From NCBI GenBank assembly GCA_903847465.1, contig CAINDQ010000038.1, positions 1-39,204 on the forward strand: DNA of 39,204 nucleotides, written 5' to 3'. The stretch's first letter is position 1, and each line of letters begins with the position of its first letter. Shown in pieces: positions 12,501 to 37,755 of the stretch. The notes under the pieces were generated by a model. That model did not search any database. It saw only the letters and a program-made list of their open reading frames with translations, and had not been told where the DNA came from. The translations under genes were made by a program, and so were the position numbers. The DNA is from an uncultured Candidatus Peregrinibacteria bacterium. GTDB taxonomy: Bacteria; Patescibacteriota; Gracilibacteria; UBA1369; LOWO2-01-FULL-3.

Positions 12501-15500
12501 GGATAACTCGCCGCTTTGAAATAACTTAAATTATCAACATAAGGCACAACAATCTCTTCATCATTACCTACTGCCTGCCAAATACTTCCATCATTATAAT
12601 AGTAGGAGCTATCAATTCCAGCGCCTACATTTAAACCATCGGTATAGCCTATAAAGAAACCAATGTCGTAAATTCTTTCGCTGGTAATTATTCCCGCCAT
12701 AAAACTATTAAGAACCAAATCGGACCCACTTTCAGACCCGCCAACAAAACCACCGATGGCCTCAGAAGAATCAGAATCAGTACCAGCAACAGTTCCACCA
12801 AAGTAACTATTTTCAATAATTGATGTAGAATAACCATTGTATCCGACCATACCACCGACACCTACTAAACCACTAACATCGCTTACGGAATAACTATCCA
12901 CAACAACTACTCCAGTCCCATCATAGCTATCATTATAAATACTCCCAATAACACCACCTACCTTTTCACCTCCTCCAGCCACAGATCCAGAGGTATAACT
13001 TTGAGAAATTTGAATGTCGCAGTCATCGTCATCAAAACCCACTGACCCCAACATTCCACCAACAGAATTTACCCCAGACAAAACATTGCCAGAAAAGTAG
13101 CTGGTAGAAATATCTAATTCAAATTCTTCCGAAACACAGGCATTGCCGAGGGATATATTTCCAACAAACCCACCAACCCCATCAGCACCACCAGTAATAT
13201 CACTCGATACGGATGAACTCGTAATTGTGGATGGTCCAAAATCTTCTAAATAACCGACAAAACCTCCGGCCGTTCCGACAGAGGTAATATCAACGCTACT
13301 CACTACATTATCGATAGTAATCCCACTGGCAGACCCAGCTAACAAACCAGCCGAAGAACCACTCTGAGTACTATTAACCGTACTACTTGAGAAAGTTAAA
13401 TCCTTAAAAATAGCTGAGGAAACAAACCCAAAAAGACCGACATTAGCGGCATCAATATCAATATTTAAGTTACTAATCGTCTTATTATTTCCATCCAAAA
13501 CTCCAACAAAAACGCCAGTATCTGACTCATCACTAAATGTCCCGATCGGATCAAAGTAACCTTCATTCGCTTCACCGTCAATAACGGTCGCGCAATCAAT
13601 ATCATCCACCAATTTATACACATCTTCTGAAGCAGTGTCATTACTGTAAGTCACCGCAATGTCCTGCAATTCCTGACAAGTAGAAATTTCATGTGTTTTT
13701 CGAAGCGTTGGATAACCGACTCCCTCTGGATCCAACCAAATACTATCAAAATCCCAATCTGCAAAAGTATCACGATCTCCCATTTCTAGAGTAGTTTTTC
13801 CAGTACCAATACCATTTTCCCCAAGTAAGAAAATTTCATTATTCCAAAACAAACTATTTGACCCAGCTCCAGTATCTAGATATCCAACGATCCCGCCAAC
13901 TCCCTGACCTCCACCTTCACGAACATTAACATCAACAACTGAGTAACTATTGCGAAGGAATGCACCACCTTGATTGGCACCTACTAAGCCACCAAGTCTA
14001 TTTGCGCCAGTCACGCTACCAGTAGCATAAGTATTTAAAACTGAAGTATCACCATGACTATATCCAATCAACGCTCCTACTGCCCAATCAACACCAATGA
14101 TATAAACATCTTCCAAGCCAACATTTTGAATAGTTGCCCCATCCGTTTCTCCAAAAAAACCAGTTCCGCCCCCACCAGTAACTGGAGTCGACACAGGTTG
14201 ATTAATATAAAGATTAGAAATGACATATCCATACCCATCAAATGTTCCACTAAAATATGTAGCTGGCGTATCATTAGGATTTCCAATCGGATTGAAACCC
14301 ATCAAATACGTTAAATCAGCCGTAACTGCCCCCGCAGGCTCTACGTCAAAAGTAATAGTTCCATTCGCAGGATCAACCGTATACGAATCTTCTATAGCAA
14401 CCTCCCCTCCAACATAAATTTCCCCTCCCGTTAAATTCGTATAGCCAGTTGAATAAGTAGTGCCACTTACAAGTGTAAGCGATATTCCCGTCACTAAAGC
14501 TGACTCATTCCAATCTTCTGATTCCGCACAATCTATGTCGGAAGTCAAAACATAGTCTGCATCCAAATCCGTCCTCATATTTTGCAATTGAGCACAAGTT
14601 TCAATTCGATATGGATCCTCCGACGTTCCGCTACCGCTAGCAAAAAGAGTATCCACAGCAAAATTAGCAGTAACCGTTATATCATTGATAATGTCGGCAT
14701 CAGTTCTCTCTGCAGGTAAAAGCTCATCGTCACTCCAAGAAATAAAATGATAACCCGCGTTAGGAACAGCGGTAACTGTCGCCCCACTCCCTAATTCGTA
14801 AACGATTTGTGGAGAAACGCCATCTATATAACCACCTTCTCCAGCTGTATAAGTCAAAGTATAAGTTGTCGGATCGCCGCCACAGTCTGGTGGACAGTCA
14901 TCTGGTGGCGGAACAAAGTCCTCAACCGTAATTGTTCCAGAATCACCAGGGGTTAACCCCTCCAATGTCGCATGAATAGTGGCAGTTCCAGTCGCGCCAC
15001 CGGTAAAAATGGCACTCTTCATATCTAGTGCTGGCGAAAGATCACCATCAACCACCCCACCTGTTTCACCTTCAAGTGACCATGCAGTTGCCGCAACATT
15101 CTCAATAAAATTTCCATACTGATCACGCGTAATTGCATAAGCGGTCAATGTATCTCCAATATAAATCGTCTGCTCCCAAACATCTATTTCAGTCCCGTCT
15201 TCTACGCGAACCTGTGTCGCCACATCCGGAACCAAAGTTACTGTAGAGATACTTAGAGACACATCTGCAAACGAAACACTAAAAGTTCCCTCCGTAGTAG
15301 TCGTTGTAGACAAACGAATTTCGTCACCACTCGCCGTGCCAGATAACTTAACACTGATCGTACCACCACTGTAAAGGGTATAAAAACTATCCATAATTAT
15401 ACTAGTCCCCGTAATCTGTATACTATTCGGAGAATCTTCTCTTTCCACTGTCGGCATTTGAGAAATGATCAAGTCTGAAGCTGTAATGCCTGGATCAATA

Positions 15501-15748
15501 ACTGTTCCTGCAGGAAAAAACATCGTCACGGTTAAAGGGGTTGTATAATTTTCCGAAACATTGAAAGTCCCAATGACATCATTTGGTTGCAGCCATGATC
15601 CTACGGTCTCCCCAGAAGGGCCAAAGGTAAGATCGGCCGCGTTTGCGTTTGCAACGCCAATTTTTAGACCACCCAAATTAGTAGCCATTAACGTAAACAT
15701 CACAAAACTCGCAACGAGTTTTTTGAAACAGGAGAGAGATTTTTTCAT
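6596..15748 (-). CDS. giant SLH-anchored modular surface protein A (3050 aa; GLUG beta-helix stalks plus lectin-type domains)
   Basis: A 3050-aa uninterrupted ORF with these elements in order. (1) Sec signal peptide MKKSLSCFKKLVASFVMFTLMATNLGG..ANA. (2) Ig-like domain (TLTAYAITRDQYGNFIENV). (3) Listeria-Bacteroides-type repeat (YTLTYTAGEGGY..GYHFISWSDD). (4) Three cap modules (PYRIETCAQLQ.., ISTCQELQ.., QIANCQQLQ.. ending in DIDC), each followed by many GLUG-type turns (VGGLVG/VGGFVG). (5) F5/8 type C, two LamG and a NIDO-like domain. (6) An NNWWG beta-helix end. (7) Three C-terminal SLH repeats. Confidence 0.95.
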   Translation of the reverse strand: MKKSLSCFKKLVASFVMFTLMATNLGGLKIGVANANAADLTFGPSGETVGSWLQPNDVIGTFNVSENYTTPLTVTMFFPAGTVIDPGITASDLIISQMPTVEREDSPNSIQITGTSIIMDSFYTLYSGGTISVKLSGTASGDEIRLSTTTTTEGTFSVSFADVSLSISTVTLVPDVATQVRVEDGTEIDVWEQTIYIGDTLTAYAITRDQYGNFIENVAATAWSLEGETGGVVDGDLSPALDMKSAIFTGGATGTATIHATLEGLTPGDSGTITVEDFVPPPDDCPPDCGGDPTTYTLTYTAGEGGYIDGVSPQIVYELGSGATVTAVPNAGYHFISWSDDELLPAERTDADIINDITVTANFAVDTLFASGSGTSEDPYRIETCAQLQNMRTDLDADYVLTSDIDCAESEDWNESALVTGISLTLVSGTTYSTGYTNLTGGEIYVGGEVAIEDSYTVDPANGTITFDVEPAGAVTADLTYLMGFNPIGNPNDTPATYFSGTFDGYGYVISNLYINQPVSTPVTGGGGTGFFGETDGATIQNVGLEDVYIIGVDWAVGALIGYSHGDTSVLNTYATGSVTGANRLGGLVGANQGGAFLRNSYSVVDVNVREGGGQGVGGIVGYLDTGAGSNSLFWNNEIFLLGENGIGTGKTTLEMGDRDTFADWDFDSIWLDPEGVGYPTLRKTHEISTCQELQDIAVTYSNDTASEDVYKLVDDIDCATVIDGEANEGYFDPIGTFSDESDTGVFVGVLDGNNKTISNLNIDIDAANVGLFGFVSSAIFKDLTFSSSTVNSTQSGSSAGLLAGSASGITIDNVVSSVDITSVGTAGGFVGYLEDFGPSTITSSSVSSDITGGADGVGGFVGNISLGNACVSEEFELDISTSYFSGNVLSGVNSVGGMLGSVGFDDDDCDIQISQSYTSGSVAGGGEKVGGVIGSIYNDSYDGTGVVVVDSYSVSDVSGLVGVGGMVGYNGYSTSIIENSYFGGTVAGTDSDSSEAIGGFVGGSESGSDLVLNSFMAGIITSERIYDIGFFIGYTDGLNVGAGIDSSYYYNDGSIWQAVGNDEEIVVPYVDNLSYFKAASYPEPTPPISSWDFVGGTLEQPDPVWVATEGFFPTLYAIAADDPLTISFETPPTPVDSSIINGTSAEISVATNSSNQHYIVNNFDDSLVGWWRGEDNATDESGTGNNGSFDIDGSGYTIVDTTSATASASNTYLVDPENPVDFYLPGKAFDGDPDTKWFCDGNTGGYNGTTQWLEIDLGVGNEATVTKTRLLYNEPTEAMTGRIQGSNDDSAWTDLKSFSHGVNNTWYNDYISNSTSYRYYRLFIDTGTPSANWPEIYEWELYTGEGVGSYSAGKFGQAFDFDGTNYVTVASDESLQTSDNFTVSAWVKPVNQGVGWKTIIGNQWHFPLSGYLVSMDGETGQIHVAVGGGGSFDNVDGVTNIADGSGHLVTVAFSAGNIKIYVDGELDKNYDTVGISSIAYATNNFTIGRNSDGDFEYWTGLIDDISIFNRVLSLGEIASLYDASANQYSNTFTDLAGGEHTDTAYAVDLDGNKVSTSERTFSVEEEPSFAGGDGSPEDVGDGPWQIANCQQLQAINSDVDYLDDYYILVPEGETDTIDCSATSGWNDGAGFEPIGTLESPFTGHFDGDSKTIDGLNIDRSETDYVGLFGVVQIREEDEESGRILNVSLTDVYVNGHDRVGGLVGKMFNHVEVGNSNVEGNISGNDYVGGLAGGSLGSITTSETNITVDGRNYVGGMVGALSGTEGDYNQGYILGSYSSGQVQGSEQETGGLVGVMTEYGYVSHSSADVRVAGYWNVGGLIGAAQGYVENSFATGEITADEYGAGGLIGYLDGGEVYASFATGSVTAHEDGYELDAPSSYAGGLVGMANNGDIYESYATGDVLGISLRVGGLVGGTNALVQDCYATGNVTAGDGGNWYIGGERAGGLVGGLSGEVVNSYATGTVQGNKYVGGLVGIDLSGEISYSFSTGTVTGEGIDPTYIGDFIGQGGDVDYGALYDYYVGEGTPVGDGRESGDPILGESIAYFQGLDVASQSPFSNNWIFSGGDQAWGAFEGLYPTLEAIEADDPFTIQFVTPPTPADEETLASNTAEVKIETTGDGPQSYVINNLDNSLIGWWRGEENANDDSVHDASGDASDGVSYIEGKFGQAFDFSQGYVDLQTESFPVGTDPVTISLWFKTDSCDSTYLFVYGAETEYSQRALICEDSSTLMFSGFGSDILNSGLSTTDGEWHQIAGVYDGQYASLYYDGSLLTQAGAQDWDTEMDGGARIGASLSVEGQLDGSVDDVLVFDRVLSAGEIKALYDASSFPYDVTFDDLSAEEHTIEAYVVNTDGDLLVTDSRTFTASESAIQNPVETILDENQFHDSGEAQGWNDDDNVWTYELPFDFTFYGVTYSAGDYVYVSSNGYIAFEDPDNEYDFGVADGIGVPIIVAMSGDLDTDSECGGDGSDIYITDNEDGQVIFRWQGAEHSNCETLLNFEIVLRDDNTFDLNYGEMIGDLSENSSVGVNNGNDMYVLSEYSDLVNYDMLDTSAWDWPAGGVDDVYVDFNYDVDGDDCGEYTCGENAFDNMEDAIDAVAEGGTIHARNNWWGDATGPSIVTNPSGQGTQIVLSDSYSVLYRPFCTNESCSAEDLSEYEVEIDDDPDTNDLEILFDDGGTMSVPGVDNGDYSEITQIDVEEDTVITIPVTESSNTIITLPAGTAITRHVGEGEDDTFNAALLNAVDTATELLSNFGAGTLVGAFEWGIPDLGLQFSEPITVDMYVGADLSGDTLTVQRSISLDGGWTQDGLLWIDADDERNGTCIVSSEGICSFRTTLASYYIAGVPASSGGGGGSSLLMKKIAKVSEVTTFSFKDVARETGKNAKAIYDLYQRGVVKGYEDGNFKPEIPVNRAQILKMLVAWKVNAPDPYKYKNCFPDVKTQWYAPYVCYAKEQGWVEGYLVGEYKGLFKPELTASKAQTMKMLLNVLGVEISKVVSEKPFDDVALDAWYAGFIAKAKELGILEETGKLFTPGTQITRGGFAENLSRLLTKLGK
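6599..7150 (-). other. three SLH (S-layer homology) repeats, C-terminus of protein A
   Basis: FSFKDVARETG..VVKGYEDGNFKPEIPVNRAQILKML; FPDVKTQWYAPYVCYAKEQGWVEGY..FKPELTASKAQTMKML; FDDVALDAWYAGFIAKAKELGIL..FTPGTQITRGGFAENL. Confidence 0.8.
8138..8560 (-). other. NIDO-like (nidogen-type) domain in protein A
   Basis: WTYELPFDFTFYGVTYSAGDYVYVSSNGYIAF...VPIIVAMSGDLDTD...SDIYITD...VIFRWQG matches the remembered NIDO pattern fpFfG..y..lyVntNG.isF ... iiAPfwaDvd ... vyyr. Confidence 0.45.
8780..9262 (-). other. LamG / concanavalin-A-like lectin domain (second copy in A)
   Basis: GKFGQAFDFSQGYVDLQ...VTISLWFKTD...WHQIAGVYDG...LYYDGSL...VDDVLVFDRVLSAGEIKALYDA. Confidence 0.7.
11177..11689 (-). other. 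LamG / concanavalin-A-like lectin domain (first copy in A)
   Basis: GKFGQAFDFDGTNYVTVASDESLQTSDNFTVSAWVKP...HLVTVAFSAGNIKIYVDGEL...IDDISIFNRVLSLGEIASLYDA. Confidence 0.7.
11720..12079 (-). other. F5/8 type C (discoidin)-like carbohydrate-binding domain in protein A
   Basis: GKAFDGDPDTKWFC...QWLEIDLGVGNEATVTKTRLLYN...GRIQGSNDDSAWTDL...YRYYRLFI...IYEWELY follows the A.DGd..T.W / wl.vDLG / iq.S.Dg..W / aRYvRl / E.e.y pattern. Confidence 0.6.
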
Positions 15749-15945: not shown

Positions 15946-18900
15946 CTATTTAACAATCAAATCCACAATCTTTGCAGCCTCAGCTCTAGTGATGTTGTTT
16001 CTTGGTTTGAATGTCTTGTCTCTATATCCGCTCACAATGCTATTCTTGACTGCGTACCCAACAAACTTCGCAAACCAGTCAGTCAACAAAACATCTGGGA
16101 ATGTATTTTCGTAAGCAGAGAGGTCTCCTTTTTCTTTCGCAAGGACAAGGATTTTCACAGCCTCAGCACGAGTAATTGGTGCGGCTGGTTTAAATGTGCC
16201 ATCGCCATATCCGGTTACTATTCCAGCCTTAACCGCCGCCTCAATATATGGTGCGAACCAATCTTTTGCATCAATCACATCGGTAAAATTTGTGACCGGT
16301 TTTTCCGAAAGAGGTAATCCAAATTTCATCACCACAATCTTTGTAAACTCAGCTCTAGTGATTGGTTTGTTTGGTTGGAAGTGTGTTTCGTCATAACCTT
16401 TCACAATTCCCTTCTGATACAAACTCTCGACGTACAAATCAGCCCAATGATTAATCATGTCTACGAATTGATGCCTTTTTCCAGCAGGAAGCACCTCTTC
16501 CGCCTTCACTACTTTCTTTAGAACGCTGCTTCCTCCGCCTCCACCATTATCCTCAGCAGGAATACCCAAAATTCCAGAATAATCCAAGTTTTCAACTTTA
16601 ATTTTACTACCAAGATCCGTACACACTATTCCAGTTCCCTCGTCCGTATATGCTCCTCCGAGACATTCAGTAAAGTCATATTCACTTGCTCCGTCACAGC
16701 TTGCGCTTATTTCGGACAATTCGGTAATCTCAGCATTTTTCACGCACAAAGACGCGAAGTTATTATCATCTATGTACATGGTTTTCTTTTGCCCTTCTTG
16801 CAATTGACCATCAAGATTTATCAAAACTGAATTCGGCCCTTTCTTTATCACAACATTACTTAAATCAAAAACGTCTGCGCCGAAATCAAATGTAAAGTCA
16901 GCTATTTCATCTTCCCCTTCATAGAAAATAACTTCTTCTGCCTCAGAAAAAATTCCATCAGTTCCTTCTCCTCCGACTGTGACATTCAAATCTCCAGAAA
17001 GACCGTCTGAGGTTACTTCTCCTTCGGTATACCATAGTGGGTCACTTGAATCATGCTCACCATCACCGTCAGTGTCAGGTCCACGTTGCCACTGGAATAT
17101 TGGATATGCATTGGCCGCTATATACCAAACATCATTGAAATCCCAACCATTGAAAGTCCCTTGAGTTTGCATTTCGGAAGTCGTCTTATCCAAACCAGCA
17201 TCACCTTCTTCGTTATCAATACCCGTAGTATCAATATCCCAGTAAGAATTTTCTACTGGCCCACCTTCACCCATAGCTCCAACCAATCCTCCATAAGTTA
17301 TCACATCCTCTCTTGCACCAGATGAGTCACCATTTCCTCCCTGCAAAGTAGCGCCATCATCACCATTTATTTGACAAGCACCACCGGCACTTTGAGTTCC
17401 TCCACATCCGCCACGATAATCCATACCATCAGCACCATCATTCCCCTCTTCTCCACCACCAGCTCCTCCAGGACCAAAATATCCCGTTCCTCCTCCTCCA
17501 CCTCCGGCAATAATTATTGAATTTTCTTGCACAAAAGCTCCGTCAAAAATACCTGACAATCCACCACCTCCTCCTCCGGAAGCATCGTCATATGTGCCAT
17601 ACCCTCCACCTCCAAAACCACCTGCTCCACCAACCAATCCAAGAAGTCCTCTACCACCACCTCCACCAACAATAATAAGTAATTCTTGACCTGGGGTGAC
17701 GGTAAGAGTCCCGCTAGCGTAACCACCGGAACCTCCTTGATTTGTAAGAGAATAGTTACCTCCACCTCCACCAGCTCCCCATAATTTAACATTCAAACTT
17801 GTAACGCCTTCTGGAACTACAAATGCTTGTTCATTCCAGTCATCATAGTCAAATACTTGGGTTGTATCTCCATATGTAACCACAACTCTTCCATTACCGC
17901 TTTGTTTTATCGAAGTGCCTCCTGTCCCAATTCCAGTAGAATAATTTTCATCATCTGTCGTTGGCGGCAAAGCGCTTGTCGACCCGACGCCATTATTTCC
18001 AGTCTCAAGATACCCGTTTGTAGTAACAACAAGAGGATCATAATATCCACTTCCACCACCCGCAGGTCTAGCATCACCGAAACCACCTTCACCACCAAAG
18101 TATCCTCCACCACCTCCTCCTCCATCATAATTATTTCTCAGATAACTACGCACTTTCCCAACTGAATATGAATTGCTAATACTACCACTATTATATCCAG
18201 CAAGTCCGCCCATATAATCATAAGCACCAATTAAACAATTAGCATAAGAATCTATAATTTCTCCAGTTCCAGCATTATTACCAACAAGACACCCAACAGT
18301 CTGATTAGCGCTAATTTGACCAGAAACAAATGATCTTTGAATCGAACCTTCGTTATATCCGACCAACCCTCCAACAGTACGACCAGCATCTCCTGAATAC
18401 GAGCCAATCACTAAATTTTCCAAACCAACATCAGTTATTGCGCCACCCTCTCCAAGATGCCTAAATAAACCGACATAATTCAAATCATCTATAGATATAC
18501 TCAAACGACTAATCACGTGTCCATCACCATTAAAAGAACCAGTAAATGGTTCTGGTGGCGGATCAATCGGAATAAAATTACCAAATTGAGAACAATCTAT
18601 ATCATTGTTTAGAATAAAATTTTTGTCGAGATATAAATATCCACCTTCGCCATCTTGAGTACCAATGGCTTCAAGCTGTGCACAGGTTTCAATTTGATAT
18701 GGTGATTCTTGGCCGTTTCCGCCGGCAAATGTAGACGGTGCCGCGTTCAAGACCGTTTTTAACACAACTATATCCTTGTCGCCGGAATAAGCGTTAATTG
18801 GAAAACGGTCATTTTCCCCTCTCCATGTTCCTTTGCTATATCCAACCGCATAAACATAAGTACCATCGGTTACTATACCTAAGCCACTATCTTCCATTCC

Positions 18901-21900
18901 TGAGCCAAAGAAAGTGTGTGTATTATAAGAACCATCACTATTGAGCTTGAGAAGCATTATATCTGCATTCCCTGTATAGTCACGGACTGGTGAGGTGTCA
19001 TCATCTCCTTGCCAGCTCGCTAAACTTCTACCGACAACATACATGTTATCAGAATCATCATGGGTGAGACTTAAACCATAATCTTCAGAATCGGAACCAT
19101 AGAATGTATGCCACGCATATCCTCCTTCGTTATCAAGAGTCAAAACCATGATGTCGTTATTATCGCCGGAGTGTGCATGAAGTGGCGATTGATCTGCTGG
19201 ACCATCCCATGTCTCCCCGCTAAAACCTGTCACGGAAATATAATTACCATTACTCACATCAATATCATTTGCCCAATCTGAACCTGAGGAACCATAAATA
19301 GTGTGCCAAGCATATGCTCCACTTCCGTCCAATTTTAGAACAAAAGCGTCGTTGTCTCCACCGGTGAAGTCATGTTGCGGATCTCTGTTATCGTCCCCGT
19401 ACCACGTACTAGTACAGAATCCACTCACATACACATTTCCAGCAAAATCAACTGTAATAGAGGTAGGCTCTTCACCTGGATTATCTTCATCAATAAATGT
19501 CTGCGAACCATAGAAAGTGTGCCAATCATAAGAGCCATCCGTTCCCAATTTCAAAACCGCTATGTCAGTTTGCAAACCAGTATCATCGCCACCACTATAT
19601 GCATGCAAAGGCGCAGCTTCATCGTCTCCTTGCCAAGTATCATAACTCTTTATAGCAACATAAACGTTCCCTTCACTTACAGCAATTCCTTGGGCTTCGT
19701 CTGGATAATCATAAGAGCCGTAAAAAGTATGCCATTGATATGCACCATCGCTATTAAGTTTTAACACCAAAGCATTTGACTCCTCTCCAGAAAATCCATG
19801 TATAGGCTGGTCTCCCTCTCCTGGGCCATTCCAGCTACCATAACTAAACCCAGAGATATACAAATCGTTGTTAGAATCAATTGCTGCCGATAATGCATAA
19901 TCAGCTCCTTGCGAAGTACCATAGAACGTATGCCACAAATAATTTCCATTTGAATCAAGCTTCATAACAAAAATATCAGCATTAGCACCAGAATTAGAGT
20001 GCGAGTTAAGTGGTGATTCACTATTTGGCCCATCCCACGTATCCTTACTCCTACCCACAACATAAATATTGCCATCATCATCTCTCACTATACTGTACCC
20101 ACGATCTTCATTGGCTGAACCATAGAAAGTATGCCATGATCCTGACTCCTCTAATGTTGGAAAATTATCCGCATGAGCATACCAGGTATTTTCAAAATCC
20201 CAGTTATATCCTTCACCTTGTGCCTCCAAATAGAATTCGTTTTCAGCATCGTAAAAATAAGAAACTCCCTCTGCTAAATAAAAATTATCAGAATCGTCAT
20301 TCCCCTCATTATTATTATTTATACCAACCAACGGTTCCTCCGCCGAAACATAAACACCAGACTTATAAATACCGTAACCATAATCAGGAAAATTTAATCC
20401 CGCAAAAAGTCCAACGGTGTTTACTCCTTCTTCAAAACTTCCGCCAGTTATAGTACCAGTAGAAAAACTTCCGTACACAGAATCACCTCCATTGCGCCCA
20501 ACAAATCCACCGACACTTTCCGTCGTGTCCGTAACCGTCAAATCACCACTTGAATAAGAAGTGTATACGTCTCCATCATTATATCCGACAAATCCACCGA
20601 CATGTGCCGCTTCCGAATTTTCATTCACGACATCCCCGGTAGAATATGTATTTTCTATGTTCCCATAGTTGACACCAACAAAACCTCCAACATTATAATC
20701 ATCACCAGTCACTGTCCCCGAAGAATACGAAGTTGATATAGCTCCATTATCATTATACCCGACAAAACCTCCCACCGATTGCAGTCCGGAAACCGCCCCG
20801 AGAGAGTAGTTATTACTGATAAGCACATCTCCTGTAAAATACCCAACAAATCCACCGACGTCTTCACCCTCAGCCTCAACTGCAACATCAGAATACGAAT
20901 CACTAATCTCCCCTCCATAATTGTATCCGACAAAACCTCCTATTTCATCACGACCATAGACATTACCTGTAGCAAAAGAACCTGTAATAGTTCCTACGTT
21001 AAAACCAATCAATCCACCAACATTATCATAACCTGAGACAGTAATATTGACGGCACTAGAATCTGTAATCGTATGATGGGTTCCAGGATGCGTATAGTAA
21101 TAATACTCACGGAACCAATCTTGAATATAACTAGGATATTTATACATCCCTACATGTTCCAATGGTTCATGATATCCATTTGAAATAACTTCAAAAGATC
21201 TCTCGTAACCGCTCGGCAAAGTAGGCAATTCTCCAAAATCCAAATCAACTTCCGTATTGTCTTCACTTAATACAATATATTTTTCATCGACTTCTTTTAA
21301 TAAAGATATGTCGCAACCATTAAGCCCAGTACAGGCAATCGGTTCCAAGGCATGGGTCACCACGCTCGCCCCCTTTGTATCTGTAATTTTTATTGAAATA
21401 TAATCGACATAATCAATGTTTTTCTCAGTAGGATCATACGCCATCTTCACAATCCTATTTGTGAACGGATCCAACTTATAATTGAATGCTCCTTCCTTTT
21501 CTTTACCGGTATTATAGACATTTAGTTTCGAGTTGAATTCATATCCTTCGCCATTATCAGTTTCAATTATCGGACATTTATTGTGTGCCAAAATTCCATC
21601 GGCATAATAACTATGTCCAGGTCCGCAAGTCAGCTCAGATTCATTCGCGGGTTTAACTTCTAAATTATAAACAGGCACAGTGTCATACACTCCATTGATA
21701 GAACGAACTTCGACGTCCTGTCCGTTTTCATCCATCAAAATATCCCCAACAACCATCTTACCCGCCTCCTTCCATTCACCATTCACATAAAGTGGATGAT
21801 TTGGAGTAAGTTTCAAATCATCATTTATAATTAAATAATAACTAGCTTTATGAATAAATGTTTGAGCAACTTCTCCAAAAACTTTCTCTTTGGAAGCCTC

Positions 21901-24900
21901 ATTAAATGATTGAACCTTGTCTCCTGCCTTCACATCTTCAATATTTTTATAAGATCCATCTTCAAGCAAAATTTGCGTACCTCCCAAGAAACAAACATCC
22001 GGAACATCGTGATAACCTCCAAGTCCTCCGACATTGCCTGCCTCATCCGCGTCTACTTCTCCACTCACGTTAACATTATCAATAGTACTGCTGGTACTTA
22101 TATATCCGCCCAAAATTCCTACATAATCAACTTCTCTAAAAGCCTGAATGTAAGCACCGGTTATATCAACATTGGATATCTCAGCTCCATCTCCTATCAT
22201 CCCAAAAAGACCGAGAAAATCCTCGTTACGTTCGATAGTTAAATTTTGAATTTCATAATTACCACCCTCTCCGTTGTCTCCATCCAAAGTTCCAGTAAAG
22301 AAATTATCTTCTATGTTTGGGTAATGGTCTCTATCTCCACATAAATGGCTGGTAGTATTGCAACCTATCGGATCAAATCCCTTGCCAGAAGGCACCTCCC
22401 AATACCATTCCCGCATCGCAGCCTCACAATCCTCCTGATTATCGATAACATTGTCCCCAACACAAAAACCCTCATATTCAAACGGATTCCACTCCTCCGT
22501 TGCTGAACAATCAATGTCAGCAATCAAAATAAAATGATCAGCAAGAAATCTCCCTCCATATCCACCAATAGCCTGTAATTGCTCACAAGTTTCAATTTGA
22601 TAAGGATCTAATTCAGTTCCTGAACCGTCAGCAAAGAGATCTCCCCCCACCACGCTAAATGTTCTTTCCTCGGTTGAAATTTTATTCCCATCCAAATCTA
22701 CAGCATAAGCGGTAGTGGTATGATCACCAGCCGATAAGTCGGCAAAAGTAACATCATATGGGCTCCTAGCATCATACAAAGACATAATCTCACCCGACGA
22801 CAAAGCCCTGTTGAAAACAGCAACATCGTCAATAGCACCATCCCACGGCTCTGAAGTATATGCAGTATTGCCAATTGTAAAATTTGCCACCGGAACATCA
22901 GCACTAGGCCCATACTCTGGGTCGGCCTCAACAGTCTCAAGATATTCACCATCCACATAAAAACTAACATCGTTACTTGAATCAAAAACAATCGCCAAAT
23001 GATACCACGTATCAGGAGCAAGATCTGCTGTAGAAGTTGGGTAATCCTGTCTGTTAAATGTTGTAAATACAATTTGATTTTCAAATATTCCCCAGCCATA
23101 TCCTTCGCCATCTACCTCAGCTCTTCCAAGAATTCTTTTGGTGCCGGGATTAACAGTATTCGCATTGATCCAAGCAGACATTGAAAAATTATTTTGCAAA
23201 TTCAAGCTTTCTGAGCTTCCCATGTCAATATAATTATCATCACCATTCAAACTAAATGCTTGCCCAAACTTTCCGTCCGTATATGCTGAATCTGGACCAT
23301 CGTATGTACCAAAAAATTCAACAATATCATTCCCGTTACCAGACTCGTCAGTATTATCCTCACCTCTCCACCACCCGACCAAAGAATTATCGAAATCATT
23401 TATCACATAATGCTGAGCAGAACTGCTTGTGGAAATTTTTATGTCCGTAGATGTCCCTTCAATGGTTGATAAATCTACCGGAGTTGGATCCTCAAAAGAA
23501 ACTATGAAAGGATCATCGGCCGAAATCGCATAAAGAGTTGGGAAAAATCCTGCCGTCGCAACCCAAATCCCTTCAAAATCCCACGCACTAATTGGCGGAG
23601 TAGGCTCAGAGTAACTTGCCGCTTTGAAATAACTTAAATCCCCCTCAAAATTACAAGTTGGCGACAAGGGGTCAGAGGGATCAATATTGCCGGCACACCA
23701 CCAATTAGCGCCGCCACCGTTATAGTAATAAAATCCATCGACAATTCCAGCCCCCATATTTGCATTGCTATCACCTACAAAAAAACCAGTATTAGAGCTA
23801 CCATCGCCAGCAATCGTCCCCGCCATAAAACTATTAAACACATAATCAGTTCCATCCTCTGTGTAACCACCAAAACCACCAAGCGCATTAGAGAAATTAG
23901 CATTCGACCCAGTAACTATCCCGCCAAAATAACTATTTTCAAAACTGGAATTAATACCATAATTATAACCCACAAAACCACCTACGTTCTCATCGCCACT
24001 CACGTCACTCACCGAATATCCATTTGTAAGATAAAATCCTAAATCGATATAGCCATTATCGTTTTCAATTTTGCCAGCAAATCCTCCCGCAGAGACATTG
24101 TCAGTCGAAATTGCGCCCGAGGTAAAACTTTTAGAGATATTCACATCGCAGTCATCATCGGCAAACAGCATATACCCAAACATGCCACCGACATCATTAC
24201 TGTCGGATGATACATCTCCAGAAACATAACTTTCTGTCACATTGATATCCCTATTATCAGCATCACAAGTTCCCATCTCTGTATAACCCATGAACCCACC
24301 AACGTTATCCTTAGAACTATTTACTGTACCTGTAAAACTAGTTCCGCTAATGATTAATTTATTATCCAAATACGCCTCTCCAATCAATCCGCCGACACCC
24401 CCAAAATCAAATCCTAGTCCCAAAACATCGCCTGAAACCGCAACATCACTAATGCTCAAATCTTCCGAAGTTTTATCAATAATACCCACCAACCCGCCAG
24501 CATATCTCCAAGACCTAACACTTAAAGCACTCGTAACGTTTTCGAAATTTGGACCAGTAGCAAATCCCACCAAACCACCAACCGTCGCACCAGAATTTGT
24601 TCCGACAACAGATCCGGATGTTAAATCCAAATCCTTAATCGTAAAATTTTCAGCTTCAGAAAAAAGCCCAACATACTCCATATTAGATTCAATATTTAGA
24701 CCACTTATAGTCTTGTTATTCCCATCCAAAATTCCCTCAAAATCATCATTATTAAATACAATTGGGTCAAACTCTCCATCGCCATTTACAGTAGAGCAAT
24801 CAAGATCATCAGTCAGCTTATAAGTATCGAAACGTGCCAACGAATCGACATCGACTTCATAAGTAGAAACTATATCCTGCAATTCCTGACAAGTAGAGAT

Positions 24901-26886
24901 GTTATGCGTTTTGCGTAATTGTGGAAAATTGGGCCCAAAAAGAACCCAATCATTTTGAAAATCCCAAGCACTATATATCCCCAAGACTTGATCATAAAAA
25001 TCTGAATCCATTGCCCTCGAATACCCCATGACCGCACCTACCTCATTGCCAACCGCATCAACACCCTCACGAGCAACCCAACCATCAGTTTCCAAACTAT
25101 TCGGCAAACCTGCCCCAATAAAACCACCGACTGGATTACTACCACTAACAACACCCGTTGCGTAAGAATTAGTTACAACTGGTAGCGGAGAAGAATATGA
25201 CACAAAGCCAATGAGACCACCAACATTACTACCAGTCGCTGTCCCGGTAGCATAAGAATTTGCAATCACACCATTGTCACCAAGGTACCCAACTAATCCA
25301 CCAATTGTGCTAGGCCCAGAAACTTCAGCATTGGAATATGAATCATTTATCACGTTTTCATTTCGACCAACCAAACCGCCAATATTATGACCATCTCCAC
25401 TCAGTTCACTTCCATACACTTCACCAGTCGAAAATGATTTTGAAACATCACCGTCATTGTAACCAACAAGAGCTCCGACATGAAAATCCCCAGTTATATT
25501 TACATTGGTTAAACCAACGTTCGTGATCATTGACGCACCTGATGTATATCCAAACAAACCAATACTCTCTGTTAACGGTCGATTAATAAACAAACCATCG
25601 ATGGTGTAACTTTGACCATCAAATGAACCAGCAAAAGGAGTAATCGGCTCAAATCCCATTAAATAAGTTACATCAGCCGTAACGGCTCCCCCTGGTGCTA
25701 CATCAAAAGTAATCGTCCCATTCTTAGCATCGACTGTATACGAATCTTCCGCAGCGACTTCCCCTCCAACATAAACCTCTCCCCCCGTTAACTCAATATA
25801 ACCTGTTGAATAAGTAGTTCCTTCAAGCAATGTGAGCGATATTCCCGTCACTAAAGCTGACTCATTCCAATTTCCCGATTCCGCACAATCAATATCATCA
25901 ATCAAAACATAATACGCATCCAAATCCGTATTCATATTTTGCAACTGCTGACAACTTTCTATTTGATAAGGATTTTCCGAAGTACCAGCTCCTTCTTCCC
26001 CGGAATTAGAGAAAACAGGGCCCTCAACTGTGATCGTTCCGGAATCAACCGATGTAAGTCCTTCCTGAGCAGCTCTTATATTCGCGCTACCAGTATCATC
26101 GGCGCTAAACACTAAATATTCACCTTCTGGATTAATGCCAATATCACCACTCTCACCATCTGCAACTCCTCCGGTTTCGTTTTCAAGTGTCCACGAAGTA
26201 GCACCTGAAATACTGACATTCCCAATAAAATTATCATACTGATCACGAGTAATAGCATATGCATGCAACTCCTCACCAATAGTAATTGTTTGCTCTGGAA
26301 CCACGGTCCCACTTCCATCCGCAGCCGTTTCTACTAGAACCTGAGTAGGAGCTCCAGCAACCAACGTAACATCGGAAATAGTTAGAGGAGCAACCATATT
26401 CATTCCCATGGAAAAAATTCCAAAAGAACCTCCGGTAGTAGCTGTCGTTGGAAGTTGAATTTCATTACCACTAGCTGTATCTGACAATTTCACCGTAACC
26501 GCACCAGCATTAATAGTCGTTTCGACCCCCAACCTAATAGTGGGATCTCCAGAAATCTCAGCGATGCCAGGCGGATTATCCACCGGCCCATCTTGCTCAA
26601 TAACGAAATCCGACCCAGTAATATTCTCAGAATTTAGAGTCGACCCATCAGGGAAAGTCAAATATAGACTGAAAGACGGCTGGTACGTTCCCGTGGATTG
26701 AAAAGTTGTAATGACATCTCCAGGTTGCAACCAAGATCCGACAGTACTACCGGAAGGCCCGAAAGTTAGACCGGTGGCATCAGCGTTTGCCGTTTCCATT
26801 TTCAAGCCACCCAAATTGGTAGCCATTAATGCAATAACAACAAAACTCGCAACGAGTTTTTTGAAACAGGAAAGAGATTTTTTCAT
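15946..26886 (-). CDS. giant SLH-anchored modular surface protein B (3646 aa; GLUG stalks, LamG, Hint/BIL, SBBP propeller, glycine-rich domains)
   Basis: A 3646-aa uninterrupted ORF with these elements. (1) A signal peptide [27 protein letters not shown]..ADA nearly identical to that of A. (2) An Ig-like domain. (3) Four cap modules (PYQIE[ST]C.QLQ...DIDC), each followed by GLUG turns. (4) One LamG domain. (5) A Hint domain CFLGGTQ...ILAHN. (6) Seven WHTFYGS-type SBBP blades. (7) [9 protein letters not shown]-type glycine-rich domains. (8) Three C-terminal SLH repeats. Confidence 0.95.
   Translation of the reverse strand: [3646 protein letters not shown]
15949..16467 (-). other. three SLH repeats, C-terminus of protein B
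   Basis: [138 protein letters not shown]. Confidence 0.9.
17314..18123 (-). other. glycine-rich domain(s) of the ALK/LTK-GRD / bacterial Gly_rich type (residues ~2922-3191 of B)
   Basis: [59 protein letters not shown]...[13 protein letters not shown]...[12 protein letters not shown]. This is preceded by a shorter Gly-rich segment that ends in [10 protein letters not shown]. Confidence 0.6.
18754..20136 (-). repeat. seven tandem SBBP-type beta-propeller repeats (residues 2251-2711 of B)
   Basis: There are seven units of about 60-70 aa. Each follows W/T-HTFYGS..(D/E)..G..I..D..GN.YV.G.S...W.G.......H...G..D..V.KL...G.Y. Confidence 0.75.
21070..21579 (-). other. 170-aa orphan module immediately C-terminal to the Hint domain (residues 1770-1939 of B)
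   Basis: [30 protein letters not shown]...[20 protein letters not shown]. The module is K/Y/E-rich and lacks the GLUG periodicity of both flanks. The lines I hand-counted across the 21070..21993 insert were mostly 22-38% GC (one was 48%), against 42% and 55% in the two flanking lines counted. Confidence 0.5.
21580..21993 (-). other. Hint / bacterial intein-like (BIL, A-type-like) autoprocessing domain, 138 aa (residues 1632-1769 of B)
   Basis: Block A is [13 protein letters not shown] (Cys1 codon at 21993..21991). Block B is [11 protein letters not shown] (TxxH). Block F is VYNLEV...HSYYADGIL and block G is AHN (Asn codon at 21582..21580). No endonuclease insert is present. The next residue is Lys, not Cys/Ser/Thr. 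Confidence 0.8.
22768..23277 (-). other. LamG / concanavalin-A-like lectin domain in protein B
   Basis: [39 protein letters not shown]...[22 protein letters not shown]...[22 protein letters not shown]. Confidence 0.7.
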
Positions 26887-27860: not shown

Positions 27861-27908
27861 TAATCGAGCAAAAACGCCAATCCACAGCACAATTCCCCAC
27901 CTCTTAAT

Positions 27909-27937
27909 TTGACATTCCCGCCTCAATAGAGCAGAAT
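27909..27937 (+). promoter_or_regulatory. sigma70-like promoter for 27962..28456
   Basis: TTGACA (27909..27914), a 17-nt spacer, then CAGAAT (27932..27937). The predicted leader is about 18 nt. Confidence 0.4.
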
Positions 27938-27961
27938 TGACGTAATATAAGTTTATGCTAT

Positions 27962-28456
27962 ATGGCAATTGGTAAGCCTAGAGACGATAGAGATGATCAA
28001 TCTGGTCCTCTCTTTATACCAGCTAACGACGCAGATCGATCGACTGACACAGCCGCTCTTGGAAGTACCGATACTCCCGACGTGGAAATCAGTGATTTTG
28101 TAAGAGACCAAGTAACCGCCCTAAGGCCAGAATATGAAGTATTTCGAGATCTTGGATTATCTTTTCCAGGAGCTGATCAAAAATTTTCAATAAGCGATTT
28201 TTTGGCAAAAAGGGCCGTAATAGAAGGTGGCCAAGTTGTAACGTTAGATCTTTCAAGAATGGTCATCTCAAACCCTTTAGCCTTAAGAGGCCTGCCAAGA
28301 CTTCGAGAGTTAAGTTTTGTTGACGCCACCGACGGAAACGGAATTCCTCTTATTTCTGACGAAGATGTCGCCGCCGTCTTTACAACTCTCCCCAGTTTAA
28401 AAACCTTGAGACTAGAAGTAAATCAAACGATAGTCTATCCTGAAGGCATAAACTAA
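27962..28456 (+). CDS. hypothetical soluble protein with two or three LRR-like segments (164 aa)
   Basis: The N-terminus is acidic and probably disordered. It is followed by VVTLDLSRMVIS, LPRLRELSFVD and LPSLKTLRLEVN, which are weak LxxLxL matches. Confidence 0.5.
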   Translation: MAIGKPRDDRDDQSGPLFIPANDADRSTDTAALGSTDTPDVEISDFVRDQVTALRPEYEVFRDLGLSFPGADQKFSISDFLAKRAVIEGGQVVTLDLSRMVISNPLALRGLPRLRELSFVDATDGNGIPLISDEDVAAVFTTLPSLKTLRLEVNQTIVYPEGIN

Positions 28457-28472
28457 TTGTTAAATCTTCACC

Positions 28473-29027
28473 ATGAAAATAGCCCTCATCATCCACGGGA
28501 CAGAAGGTTATCCAGAAGAGAATTGGTTTCCTTGGTTGAAAAACGAATTAGCTATTTTTGGTTATCAAACAATCATTCCTCAATTCCCTACTCCTCAGGG
28601 TCAGAATCCTGAAGAATGGCTAAAAGTCCTCGCACCACTAATGAATAATTTTAACGAAGAAAGCATTCTGATCGGCCACAGCATCGGCGCCACTTTCTTG
28701 CTCCGCGTTCTCGAAAAACTCGAGACAAAAGTAAAAGCCGCAGTCCTTGTCGCTCCATCCTTTGGCATCAAACCAATCACCTATTTCGACCTCGACGTTC
28801 CTTTCACAAAAGATCCTTTTGATTGGAATAAAATCCGCAGTTCGGCTAGTCACTTTCTCGTTTTCCATTCCGAAGACGACCCCTACATCTGTCTAGCCAA
28901 TGGCCAGAAAATCGCAGACGAATTAGGCACAACTCTAATCGCCGAAAAAAACGCCGGCCATTTCAACGCCAACGCTGGCTACGCAAAATTTCCAGACCTT
29001 CTTGAAAAGTTAAAGAAATTTTTATAA
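28473..29027 (+). CDS. alpha/beta serine hydrolase of the YdeN/RBBP9 family (184 aa)
   Basis: IALIIHGTEGYPEENWFPWLKNEL matches the family N-terminal pattern. GHSIG is the nucleophile elbow. FHSEDDPY supplies the Asp and NAGHFN the His. Confidence 0.8.
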   Translation: MKIALIIHGTEGYPEENWFPWLKNELAIFGYQTIIPQFPTPQGQNPEEWLKVLAPLMNNFNEESILIGHSIGATFLLRVLEKLETKVKAAVLVAPSFGIKPITYFDLDVPFTKDPFDWNKIRSSASHFLVFHSEDDPYICLANGQKIADELGTTLIAEKNAGHFNANAGYAKFPDLLEKLKKFL

Positions 29028-29121
29028 GCCACCGGCTGTACAAACCTCTTTGTTTTTCCGATTAGTCTTCTTGCCTTTTTTCAATTTAAAGGTAAAAATA
29101 CCCTCCACTAATCATCGTCGA

Positions 29122-29688
29122 ATGTTTGAAAAAACAAGAGCACGCGTCACAGAAAAATGCAAAACTGACTTACTCACCAGACAGCAAGCAACCGAAATGA
29201 TCCGTCGAATTATTTACAGAACTATCGTTCAAAAAGTTCGTCCACACTTAAACCCGATGGCCCATTTAATCCAGTTTATTCGAGATGATGCAGGTAGAAA
29301 TGCCGTTGATCAAGCGCTCGGACGTAACGCTCATAGAGACGAAACGATTCCCAAAGAACGCTCCTTGAAAGAAATGATTGAAGGAAGCCCGGATCACCTC
29401 ATTGCCAGAATGCTTGGAGAAATTGCGGACTGCATAGATAAAAGCGCCACGCTTTCCATCGAAGATTTAACCAAGGCCCTCCAAGCCATTGTCGCCCGAT
29501 ATTATCACGGATATTCAGACCTATTTAATGCTGAAGAACTTTTGAGGGCATATGGAGTACGGAAAATTTTGGACGACATGATTATCCGAGAAACCATTGA
29601 AGGCAAACCTTTGCCGACACTTTTAATAGTCGGATATGTCCGAGAAACAGCCTCCGAATTTCTTGGCTGTCTTCCCAAAAAAAGTTAA
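29122..29688 (+). CDS. hypothetical soluble helical protein (188 aa)
   Basis: This is the ATG-initiated part of track ORF 29050..29688. The TTG extension is a hydrophobic-looking artefact, and a TTGCCT-N17-AAAAAT element at 29071..29099 lies inside it. No motif was recognised. Confidence 0.5.
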   Translation: MFEKTRARVTEKCKTDLLTRQQATEMIRRIIYRTIVQKVRPHLNPMAHLIQFIRDDAGRNAVDQALGRNAHRDETIPKERSLKEMIEGSPDHLIARMLGEIADCIDKSATLSIEDLTKALQAIVARYYHGYSDLFNAEELLRAYGVRKILDDMIIRETIEGKPLPTLLIVGYVRETASEFLGCLPKKS

Positions 29689-29702
29689 GCCACCTCCATT
29701 AA

Positions 29703-30779
29703 TTAATGCCTTCTTTTCTCTCTGCTTTTTCTTACCACTTTCAAGATCCTTTCATTCGCCCTTTCATGCAATTCTTCAGCAAAAGATCTTTGAACCGTAA
29801 CTCTATTGTTATACCTAACCGGTTCTTTTGGAATACCTTGCTTCAATTCAATTCCAAAATCCTTATCTGCAAAACCAGCCTGCTCCGCAATTCTCAAAAA
29901 TAAATCCTGCTGAACCTCACCAACAGAAGTTTCTTTTACCGCAGGCATAAAGGCCATATACTTGCTTCCATTCAAAGGCTCACCGCGAAACCGAAAAAAC
30001 ATCAACATAAAATCACTCAAAATTTGATGAGCCTTCAAAAGCTCCTGCCTGCTACAACCGTTTTGATTTTCCAGCATGGCCAAAGCTGTTTGAATATGTT
30101 TCGGAATTGGCAATCCCGTCTCGCTTTTTCTTCCAATCATTTCGCTAATCAAAAACACCAACCTAGAAACACATGCTTTAAATCTAATATGCAACAAATT
30201 GTTACCCATTTGAGATCCGGTTTCTTGAATCCATTTCAATTCCAGCAATTCCCTGAACAAAGCAGTTAATACTTTTTTAAAATCTTTATCCGTTACTCCA
30301 GTCTCAATCAAAGTATCTACACCGGCAGGCTCACTGGTTTTAATAACCTTCCCCCTGTGTGCCGACTGTCCAGCAAAATACGACACAGTCGCAATAATCG
30401 TAGCTATATCAAAATGTCTATTGCTGGTATCGAAAGGCGCAAGCGCGTCAACATCCAAATGATTTTGCTCGGGATTATATCCATAGCCATCCTTGCCAGG
30501 GAAAAAACCATAGCCATACATCTCCGCCAAGCCCTTGGCCACAAAAGGATACTTATGATCCAACCAGTTTCGACCAAATTGAGGAGACTTTTCAAACACA
30601 CTATTTCCTCTCCTAGGATCATGTCCACGCTCACAGCTACGCTCAAATGGAGATATTCCCCGATGAATTAAACTCTCGTAAGCCTCTCTATGCACAGCCA
30701 ATCTCTCTGCTCCATCAGTATAAGTAGCGGCATATTCATCCGGAGTGATTGTAAATTTTTCAGATGTTTCTGGTGGCAT
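29703..30779 (-). CDS. hypothetical soluble protein (358 aa from Met at 30779; ATGs at 30806 and 30911 are alternatives)
   Basis: A long clean ORF. A minus-strand promoter, TTGACG (30833..30828), 17-nt spacer, AAGAAT (30810..30805), places the transcript start downstream of the two upstream ATGs. No family was recognised. Confidence 0.6.
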   Translation of the reverse strand: MPPETSEKFTITPDEYAATYTDGAERLAVHREAYESLIHRGISPFERSCERGHDPRRGNSVFEKSPQFGRNWLDHKYPFVAKGLAEMYGYGFFPGKDGYGYNPEQNHLDVDALAPFDTSNRHFDIATIIATVSYFAGQSAHRGKVIKTSEPAGVDTLIETGVTDKDFKKVLTALFRELLELKWIQETGSQMGNNLLHIRFKACVSRLVFLISEMIGRKSETGLPIPKHIQTALAMLENQNGCSRQELLKAHQILSDFMLMFFRFRGEPLNGSKYMAFMPAVKETSVGEVQQDLFLRIAEQAGFADKDFGIELKQGIPKEPVRYNNRVTVQRSFAEELHERANERILKVVRKSREKRRH

Positions 30780-30804
30780 TTTTTGAAAATTTAAAATGGC
30801 AATC

Positions 30805-30853
30805 ATTCTTACACAAAGAGCCCCTTGCGTCAACAGACTCTTGGTGTTACAAT
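30805..30853. promoter_or_regulatory. back-to-back divergent promoters with overlapping -35 hexamers
   Basis: Plus strand: TTGCGT (30825..30830), 17-nt spacer, TACAAT (30848..30853), preceded by TGT (extended -10). Minus strand: TTGACG (30833..30828), 17-nt spacer, AAGAAT (30810..30805). The two -35 elements share the 9-bp TTGCGTCAA. Confidence 0.45.
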
Positions 30854-30965
30854 CGCCCTCCTTAACCGTACGATTTTGGACGAAATTAATCAAAGACACA
30901 TAGCTGACCATATTTCCGAGCTAGGAAATAACACTGGCGACACTCTGCTCGCCGCCCAAAGAATC

Positions 30966-31655: not shown

Positions 31656-31680
31656 ATTCATCAACGCCAGCCAGTTCTCT

Positions 31681-32859: not shown

Positions 32860-32963
32860 GCTTGGTTGTTTTGTTAGACTGTACCCAAACGGGCCCTGGC
32901 ATAAATTTATCAAGACCCACTTTAGACGGTTCTCAAAAAAAATAAATAGTATTTTTTTAACCC

Positions 32964-32992
32964 TTGACTTTCTGGCTTCTGCATGGCAAAAT
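32964..32992 (+). promoter_or_regulatory. sigma70-like promoter for the kinase gene
   Basis: TTGACT (32964..32969), a 17-nt spacer, then CAAAAT (32987..32992). An A/T palindrome lies just upstream. The predicted leader to ATG 33021 is about 22 nt. Confidence 0.5.
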
Positions 32993-33020
32993 CTCGCACT
33001 CTAATTTTTTAAATAACCAA

Positions 33021-34055: not shown

Positions 34056-34070
34056 TTAAAAAATCCTTTT

Positions 34071-35387: not shown

Positions 35388-35401
35388 TTTGAGTTCTTTT
35401 A

Positions 35402-36697: not shown

Positions 36698-36729
36698 ATA
36701 AAGAGTGATTAATGTATTTATTATAACTT

Positions 36730-36758
36730 ATCATAACACAAATAAGCGTCTTTGTAAA
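36730..36758 (-). promoter_or_regulatory. sigma70-like promoter for 35402..36697 (and probably 34071..35387)
   Basis: Minus strand: TTTACA (36758..36753), a 17-nt spacer, then TATGAT (36735..36730). The predicted leader is about 26 nt. Confidence 0.5.
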
Positions 36759-36799
36759 CCAATCCGCTCGCTCAAAACCCAGTCAGGTCAGCCTATTCC

Positions 36800-37636: not shown

Positions 37637-37669
37637 AAATTTGATTAAAATTTAACTTTTCAAGGCGAT

Positions 37670-37733: not shown

Positions 37734-37755
37734 AATCGTCCTTGTCACAAATTTT

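Follow-up and report, generated by a model that had tools for sequence, protein, structure and literature searches.

A conserved cassette of a type-A BIL-like Hint domain and a Cys-Pro beta-sandwich module in the stalk of a giant surface protein from an uncultured Peregrinibacteria bacterium

Type-A bacterial intein-like (BIL) domains reportedly go back to Amitai et al. in 2003 and Dassa et al. in 2004, self-cleaving Hint domains in variable surface proteins are said to have been described in 2003, and the CthBIL structure, 2LWY, is reportedly that of Aranko et al. in 2013. A type-A BIL ends in His-Asn and has no nucleophile at the next (+1) position (PMC4031507); cleavage predominates, and ligation is possible by aminolysis (PMC4031507, PMC7664689). 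More generally, BILs are Hints that cleave themselves or splice weakly and that lie in the hypervariable parts of bacterial proteins which are not conserved and are for the most part secreted or at the surface (PMC4031507, PMC7765530, PMC7664689), and one has been found in the multi-domain scaffoldin ScaO (PMC4582956). Here we analyse a window of 39,204 nucleotides (the whole of contig stretch CAINDQ010000038.1, positions 1 to 39,204) from an uncultured Candidatus Peregrinibacteria bacterium, in which gene B (15946..26886, minus strand, as are all features of the gene given below) was identified from the open reading frame (ORF) list and its translation as encoding a giant surface protein of 3646 amino acids (aa). 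Its GLUG beta-helix stalk is interrupted by a Hint domain and a 170-aa module. An earlier note on this DNA had suggested that a self-cleaving or self-ligating adhesin of this kind would be a mechanism undescribed for the protein class; because BILs in secreted and surface proteins are known (PMC4031507, PMC7765530, PMC7664689, PMC4582956), that claim was too strong. We think it probable, judging from sequence, that the two domains make up a conserved cassette placed in a GLUG turn, consisting of an active type-A BIL-like Hint, a Lys and a Cys-Pro beta-sandwich, and that the cassette is autoprocessing.

The Hint domain occupies aa 1632-1769 (21580..21993). The coordinates first proposed for Hint and module proved to be exact, with Cys1632-Asn1769 at nt 21993-21580 and Lys1770-Thr1939 at nt 21579-21070. 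When the Hint segment was scanned alone, it matched PF07591 PT-HINT at 55.1 bits (E 1.3e-14) against a curated cutoff of 27.7, so that the Hint-family profile hidden Markov model on which the earlier note had staked its assignment did recognise the segment. PF14623 Vint (40 bits, E 4.6e-10, cutoff 27), PF01079 Hint (33.5 bits, E 4.3e-08, cutoff 29.7), TIGR01445 intein_Nterm (27.0 bits, E 6.9e-06, cutoff 24.5) and TIGR01443 intein_Cterm (21.9 bits, E 1.5e-04, cutoff 15.6) also matched. The top match among PDB sequences was 2LWY, a bacterial intein-like domain of Clostridium thermocellum (E 3.2e-10), and this match together with the profiles upholds the placement of the domain with type-A BILs and PT-HINT domains.

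All four core blocks that had been read in aa 1632-1769 are present in the sequence and are conserved among relatives. Block A (CFLGGTQILLEDG, aa 1632-1644) opens with Cys1632 (21991..21993), the predicted nucleophile for an N-to-S acyl shift, which is invariant in a 13-sequence alignment of cassettes, A2. Block B, LKLTPNHPLYV (aa 1691-1701; 21784..21816), contains the T-x-x-H motif, aligns with IKTTFDHPFYV of 2LWY and has its T, H and P invariant in A2; block F is VPVYNLEV (aa 1737-1744). Block G (HSYYADGILAHN, aa 1758-1769; 21580..21615), the part matched by TIGR01443, terminates in His1768-Asn1769, the residues for Asn cyclisation, with AHN at aa 1767-1769 and both H and N invariant in A2. 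Across the 13 cassettes, which share 34-79% identity, Cys1, TxxH, YNLEV and HN do not vary. Between blocks F and G lies a clade-specific 13-aa insert (KPANESELTCGPG, aa 1745-1757; 21616..21654) with a conserved Cys1754 (ELTCGPG), limited to the window and to the relatives P0003/L001, P0004/L003 and L024; Cys1754 could pair with the +2 residue, Cys1771, across the C-terminal junction.

With a length of 138 aa, the Hint could not accommodate a homing endonuclease, and the description of it as a mini-domain followed by a non-nucleophilic Lys stands. Its host is a non-conserved giant GLUG/SLH protein, and the domain is absent from paralog A. By the definition of PMC4031507, a C-terminal His-Asn with no +1 nucleophile, the segment is on its sequence a type-A BIL. 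It shares with that type the ~130-140 aa mini-Hint size, Cys1, TxxH, the His-Asn end, the non-nucleophile at +1, the lack of an endonuclease and a place within a variable stretch of a secreted or surface protein that is not conserved, as well as having 2LWY as best structure match. The clade to which the window's copy belongs differs in its invariant +1 Lys, in the fusion of most members to a downstream Cys-Pro beta-sandwich, in the Cys-containing F-G insert of the window subclade, and in its hosts, which are uncultivated lineages including one Woesearchaeota metagenome-assembled genome (MAG).

At the C-terminal junction the sequence reads H-N/K-C-P (aa 1768-1772; 21571..21585), with Lys at +1, Cys at +2 and Pro at +3, an arrangement invariant in alignments A2 and A3. 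The +1 Lys was found in 18 of 18 cassettes and also in eight of eight close Hint-only relatives ending in HN, whatever comes next. These eight are the first Hint of P0022 and domains from MAGs labelled Methanobacteriota, Thermoplasmatales, Buchananbacteria/Patescibacteria, Limisphaerales and uncultured Gammaproteobacteria. Modules that lack a Hint likewise start x-C-P-F. We conclude from these sequences that HNKCP has two separate origins, the Lys coming from the Hint clade and the Cys-Pro from the module family. The view of HNKCP as a single co-evolved motif was tempered accordingly, as Lys without the module and Cys-Pro without a Hint both occur.

The same junction bears on whether the domain could be a canonical class-1 intein or, alternatively, a classical PT-HINT domain that releases a C-terminal toxin, proposals to which we attach almost no probability. 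The resemblance to class-1 mini-inteins extends to blocks A, B, F and G, to size, and to the position just upstream of a conserved host Cys, with an offset of one Lys. However, Lys1770 stands at +1 where an intein has Cys, Ser or Thr, the nearest Cys being at +2 (HN/K); an endonuclease is lacking; and the domain sits in a surface protein that is hypervariable and not conserved, instead of at a conserved site in an enzyme. PT-HINT is the top Pfam match and likewise comprises self-cleaving Hints in large secreted proteins, and distant Flavobacteriia relatives do consist of a Hint and a short C-terminal tail. In protein B, by contrast, the Hint is internal and is followed by 1877 aa of GLUG rungs, propeller repeats and the SLH wall anchors in place of a C-terminal toxin, and the next gene is paralog A instead of a small immunity gene. 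In the Flavobacteriia themselves (L011, L012, L016, L021 and L022) the layout is that of a classical polymorphic toxin: HND or HNA closes the Hint, ~150 aa remain as a C-terminal tail, and a small ORF lies downstream.

We then turn to the partner of the Hint, the 'CP-start' module at Lys1770-Thr1939 (aa 1770-1939, 170 aa; 21070..21579), which the earlier note had described as an orphan. An exhaustive phmmer search with the module against 1.84 billion representatives returned 34 proteins at E<=1e-3, 16 of them at E<=1e-10; four of the 34 were repeat or low-complexity artefacts, leaving 30, the window's own protein included. The module is thus one of about 30 family members and is an orphan for curated libraries only. 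The family came to light because the search was exhaustive; word-index protein searches with the module, the Hint or the module profile, which yielded few homologues or none, had missed it. With alignment A1, which holds 26 module sequences (the window copy and 25 relatives), AlphaFold predicted an all-beta sandwich with a C-terminal helix (predicted local distance difference test score, pLDDT, 94.4; predicted template-modelling score, pTM, 0.87).

Curated resources yielded no counterpart. Pfam gave, for all 26 members, only stray one-member matches, each to another family (best E 0.0086), and NCBIfam gave no meaningful match to the members. PDB sequences matched the module profile at best with E 0.66, and tblastn of the module found no match in plasmid and phage collections. 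Foldseek with the model found nothing at E<=1e-3 in either PDB (best E 0.012, TM <=0.39) or BFVD (best E 1.2e-3, TM 0.25), and concanavalin A-type lectins and cupins were rejected as homologues at TM-scores of 0.25-0.39. We conclude that the module is a rare, independent domain family that is uncatalogued in curated libraries. Because of its beta-sandwich fold and its presence in other giant surface proteins it probably serves at the surface in binding or as a structural element, a weakly based suggestion. Copies without a Hint have one conserved Cys, and Hint-linked copies have the same Cys plus a CxxxxxC pair; the number of conserved Cys residues is therefore odd, and the N-terminal one, Cys1771, is probably unpaired and a free thiol.

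The association of the two domains was counted in the 29 module-family members whose upstream sequence is known. A Hint ends one to four residues ahead of the module Cys in 18 of the 29; the junction is HN-K-C-P in 15 of these and HNKCA, HNKRCA or HNKIECP in the others. The remaining 11 modules have no Hint, and several of them form the very C-terminal end of surface proteins with LamG or beta-helix domains. On a rough neighbour-joining tree the module-linked Hints fall into at least three separated groups, with Hint-only ones interleaved. The cassette is rare, since a scan of the metagenome collection for the junction pattern found only six loci. Its hosts include uncultivated bacteria and a Woesearchaeota (DPANN) MAG.

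An occupied and empty pair of sites was found for the Hint. In L029 (1-2758) an upstream domain ends in GYFHVGVSGSYYS and is followed by a 132-aa Hint and then by the module, K-CPRIF; once the Hint is removed, the rest of the protein is colinear across the junction with P0015 (aa 58-279) and P0021 (aa 440-738), which lack a Hint, have the same upstream domain and module and read GYMHIGVSGAYHTAV-CPFVYSY at the join. The Hint is therefore an intervening element situated exactly before the conserved Cys of the module, with an offset of one Lys, and the module, as far as these sequences tell, behaves as host (extein) material.

A conserved region directly after a Hint also recalls the Hedgehog-like (Hog) unit, in which the module would be an adduct-recognition region, comparable to a sterol-recognition region, and the N-fragment would be joined to a lipid or wall nucleophile. 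The recurrence of the linkage fits such a unit, which we nevertheless consider very improbable. The Hint retains the His-Asn motif for C-terminal cleavage, whereas Hog domains, to our knowledge, are without it. Hog uses the first acyl-shift step alone (PMC7664689). The accessory domain is here an independent one, present without any Hint in 11 proteins and often at their extreme C-terminus; the Hint clade also precedes other downstream sequences; and the unit is far from C-terminal in protein B, about 1700 aa remaining after the module. Hog processing, polymorphic-toxin release and canonical intein splicing were all rejected in that each fails on a defining feature: HN is present, toxin and immunity gene are missing, and there is no +1 nucleophile, respectively.

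Several relatives have arrangements of their own. P0022 (aa 190-727) contains a Hint, a second Hint with a Ser-Leu start and no Cys1, the module and a partial third Hint, and in a Thermoplasmatales MAG two Hints lie back to back (L007, 4001-4888). Hint-only relatives of Patescibacteria type (L005, L008 and L009; about 4390-4840 in L005) end in HNKG[ED]C.P and run on into Cys-rich repeats, CGD..ID.GE.CDDGN. In L023 (3373-4899) the Hint-less P0029, with its module at the extreme C-terminus, adjoins a 190-aa gene of the Exosortase_EpsH family on a contig that is archaeal in look (IF-2/aIF5B-like GTPase, DUF460, GatC). The exosortase-like neighbour was rejected as a clue to function, P0029 being without a C-terminal sorting helix.

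In protein B the cassette is bounded on both sides by the stalk. The N-extein side is the last GLUG rung, GNVGGLGGYHDVPDV (aa 1617-1631; 21994..22038), in which Val1631 is the -1 residue, and the C-extein side is the next rung, ITDSSAVNITVSGYDNVGGLIGFN (aa 1940-1963; 20998..21069). The reading frame is open throughout the cassette region. When the 308-aa cassette was removed in silico, protein B came into register with paralog A across the junction, which together with the GLUG flanks substantiates the proposal of an insertion into the stalk. Pfam found no Hint in paralog A, which thus has no equivalent, as had been stated, and the comparison of the two sequences indicates that Hint and module were gained, or kept, together in protein B. 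P0003/L001, P0004/L003 and L024 have the insertion at the same site (GG[LI]GGYHD.. before the C of the Hint, and HHT before I[TSA]xSSA), with a Hint and module about 55-80% identical to those of the window. The C-terminal ends of the hosts vary, being SLH in protein B, PG_binding_1 in P0004 and no recognised anchor domain in P0003. Protein B has its closest relatives in L001 and L003, whose MAGs carry the label 'uncultured Gammaproteobacteria', which may be unreliable, and giant GLUG relatives of protein B under this label bear Gram-positive-style wall-binding ends (PG_binding_1).

Low GC content had been taken as a sign of insertion. The dip is real, at 36.7% in the cassette compared with 42.1% in the rest of gene B, and lies below all 273 of 273 same-sized windows of the gene. 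It does not mark foreign DNA, however: GC at third codon positions (GC3) is 30.2% in the cassette and 29.6% outside, and the drop is confined to codon positions 1-2. With GC3 being equal, the dip is due to amino-acid composition, as the cassette has 7-9% Gly and 7% Lys compared with 15% and 2% in the remaining protein, and is also richer in Glu and Tyr. No direct or inverted repeats were found at the cassette borders, and on this ground and that of the equal GC3 a foreign-DNA origin was rejected. The insertion is old, not recent.

We compared the divergence of the cassette with that of its flanks. Because synonymous divergence (dS) is saturated, only nonsynonymous divergence (dN) is reported, without a ratio of the two. 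The Hint is 80% identical to that of P0003 and 60% to that of P0004, with a dN of 0.136 against L001, and the module is 77.5% and 51% identical, with a dN of 0.142. The corresponding values are 63%, 46% and 0.305 for the N-flank and 61%, 50% and 0.346 for the C-flank. dN of Hint and module is therefore about half that of the flanking stalk, and the cassette is under purifying selection. These figures bear on the possibility that the Hint has lost its activity and is kept as a relic, with no role other than that of a structural domain or spacer in the stalk. The function of BILs is generally not known, and block F has an Asn in place of the usual Asp, both of which would suit a relic. On the other hand, all catalytic residues are invariant down to 34% identity, dN is half that of the flanks and the Hint has been kept at this site in four lineages, and we therefore regard a relic as distinctly unlikely.

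An active cassette, the reading that we favour, would work as follows. Protein B would leave the cell through the Sec pathway, and the Hint would fold; given the signal peptide, the Hint would act after export. Cys1632, assisted by Thr and His of block B, would carry out an N-to-S acyl shift that converts the Val1631-Cys1632 bond to a thioester. Cyclisation of Asn1769, with the help of His1768, would cut the Asn1769-Lys1770 bond, and the Hint would thereby be excised. By analogy with tested type-A BILs, cleaved fragments would be the main products: an N-fragment of ~1600 aa, with stalk and lectin domains, would be set free, and an SLH-anchored C-fragment would start Lys-Cys-Pro with the module (neo-N-terminus KCPIIETDNGEGYEFNSK). 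The same analogy suggests that a fraction may re-ligate through attack of the freed Lys1770 amine on the thioester, and prior capture by Cys1771 is conceivable from its place in the sequence.

We favour an active cassette because the domain belongs to the Hint family and its closest solved structure is a BIL; because the catalytic residues are invariant across 13 cassettes and the +1 Lys is constant; because nonsynonymous divergence runs at roughly half the level seen in the flanking stalk, amino-acid identity to both P0003 and P0004 is higher than in the flanks, and the same site is occupied in four lineages with differing C-termini; and because L029 minus its Hint matches Hint-less homologues. 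Several points weigh against it. Activity in this Hint clade is predicted from sequence and BIL analogy. Block F (VYNLEV) has Asn where inteins usually have Asp. A single-sequence AlphaFold (AF2) run on aa 1600-1960 reached a pLDDT of 32, and the horseshoe fold of the Hint is predicted from the sequence match to the solved 2LWY structure. Finally, the beta-helix is continuous across the insertion and Hint-less homologues are continuous, so that severing the protein might harm the host.

This stalk continuity, with the existence of Hint-less homologues, means that ligation could matter more here than in tested BILs. A splicing-type ligation might even be the physiological reaction and depend on the module: Cys1771 (+2) would capture the thioester and, once Asn1769 has cyclised, the acyl group would move to the Lys1770 amine, so that the Hint is removed cleanly and the beta-sandwich stays in an intact stalk, a new variant of protein splicing, possibly with redox gating through Cys1754-Cys1771. 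Several observations are in keeping with this scheme: 18 of 29 members, and at least three separated Hint lineages, have the Hint exactly ahead of the module Cys; HN-K-C-P is invariant in A2 and A3; Hint-excised L029 is equivalent to continuous Hint-less homologues; the odd number of conserved Cys residues implies a probable free thiol at Cys1771; and the stalk is continuous across the site. Yet the same Hint clade, with its +1 Lys, also precedes sequence that has no Cys close by, for example HNKPLPYEL and HNKDDPQPEW; Cys-Pro is kept in Hint-less modules, which argues for a Hint-independent role; and from a +2 Cys the S-to-N shift would have to pass through a large ring, for which we know of no precedent in natural inteins. 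We consider such physiological ligation unlikely. It is also rather unlikely that Hint and Cys-Pro module are co-adapted, with the +2 Cys taking the N-extein thioester and, in the window subclade, perhaps a Cys1754-Cys1771 redox gate.

In the domain order of protein B, a signal peptide, GLUG beta-helix segments, LamG and the Hint and module cassette are followed by more GLUG, SBBP propeller repeats, a Gly-rich block and three SLH domains. Pfam matches to the whole protein were SLH (2.9e-42), Glug (3e-36), Laminin_G_3 (2.7e-25), PT-HINT (1.6e-12) and Peptidase_M26_N (1.3e-10), and no record turned up when the exact protein sequence was looked up. The N-terminus is probably a Sec signal peptide, read from the sequence as MKKSLSCFKKLVASFVVIALMATNLGGLKMETANA followed by DA (26779..26886), and the three SLH domains (15949..16482; Pfam SLH in three stretches, 142.8 bits) form the C-terminal cell-wall anchor. 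The glycine-rich low-complexity block, with GGGGGGYFGGEGGFG and AGGGGGGTGYFGPGGAGGG, occupies aa ~2890-3150 (~17400-18200, minus strand), after the last GLUG region and ahead of the SLH anchors.

Paralog A (6596-15748, minus strand, 3050 aa) is in tandem with gene B. The two proteins are nearly identical in signal peptide and first ~55 residues and then diverge in domain content: paralog A carries F5/8 type C domains, an InlB B-repeat and two LamG domains, and the SBBP propeller repeats and Hint cassette belong to protein B. The pair look like duplicated, rapidly diversifying surface-protein genes. Beyond gene B, at 27900-39204, most ORFs lack a Pfam match and several have acidic or Pro-rich N-termini. 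Recognisable genes of the window are those for an ornithine/DAP decarboxylase, a histidine-kinase ATPase domain, a cupin, a serine hydrolase, a spermidine-synthase-like protein and an asparaginase fragment.

Taken by itself, the Hint is ordinary, being of a type known from bacteria; the novelty, a modest one, lies in the recurrent cassette of two domains. What is new is, first, the rare and uncatalogued beta-sandwich family and, second, its recurrent, junction-invariant fusion to one Hint clade in beta-helix giants of uncultivated bacteria and DPANN archaea (Woesearchaeota). The partner domain, confidently folded in the model, occurs only in huge surface proteins from little-known lineages. 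Should cleavage be all that the Hint does, it adds one more member to a known class. If Hint and module are a co-adapted unit, giant adhesins outside the cells of uncultivated bacteria and DPANN archaea would be ligated, or conditionally shed, by a route not described before; protein engineering, too, would gain a useful tool from a mini-Hint able to ligate with no nucleophile at +1. More than 20 years after BIL and Hint domains in surface proteins were described, this cassette clade, with its fixed partner domain, its invariant HN-K-C-P and its naturally occupied and empty architectures, offers a clean system for finding out what they do there: whether giant adhesins are cut by them, spliced, or shed under certain conditions.

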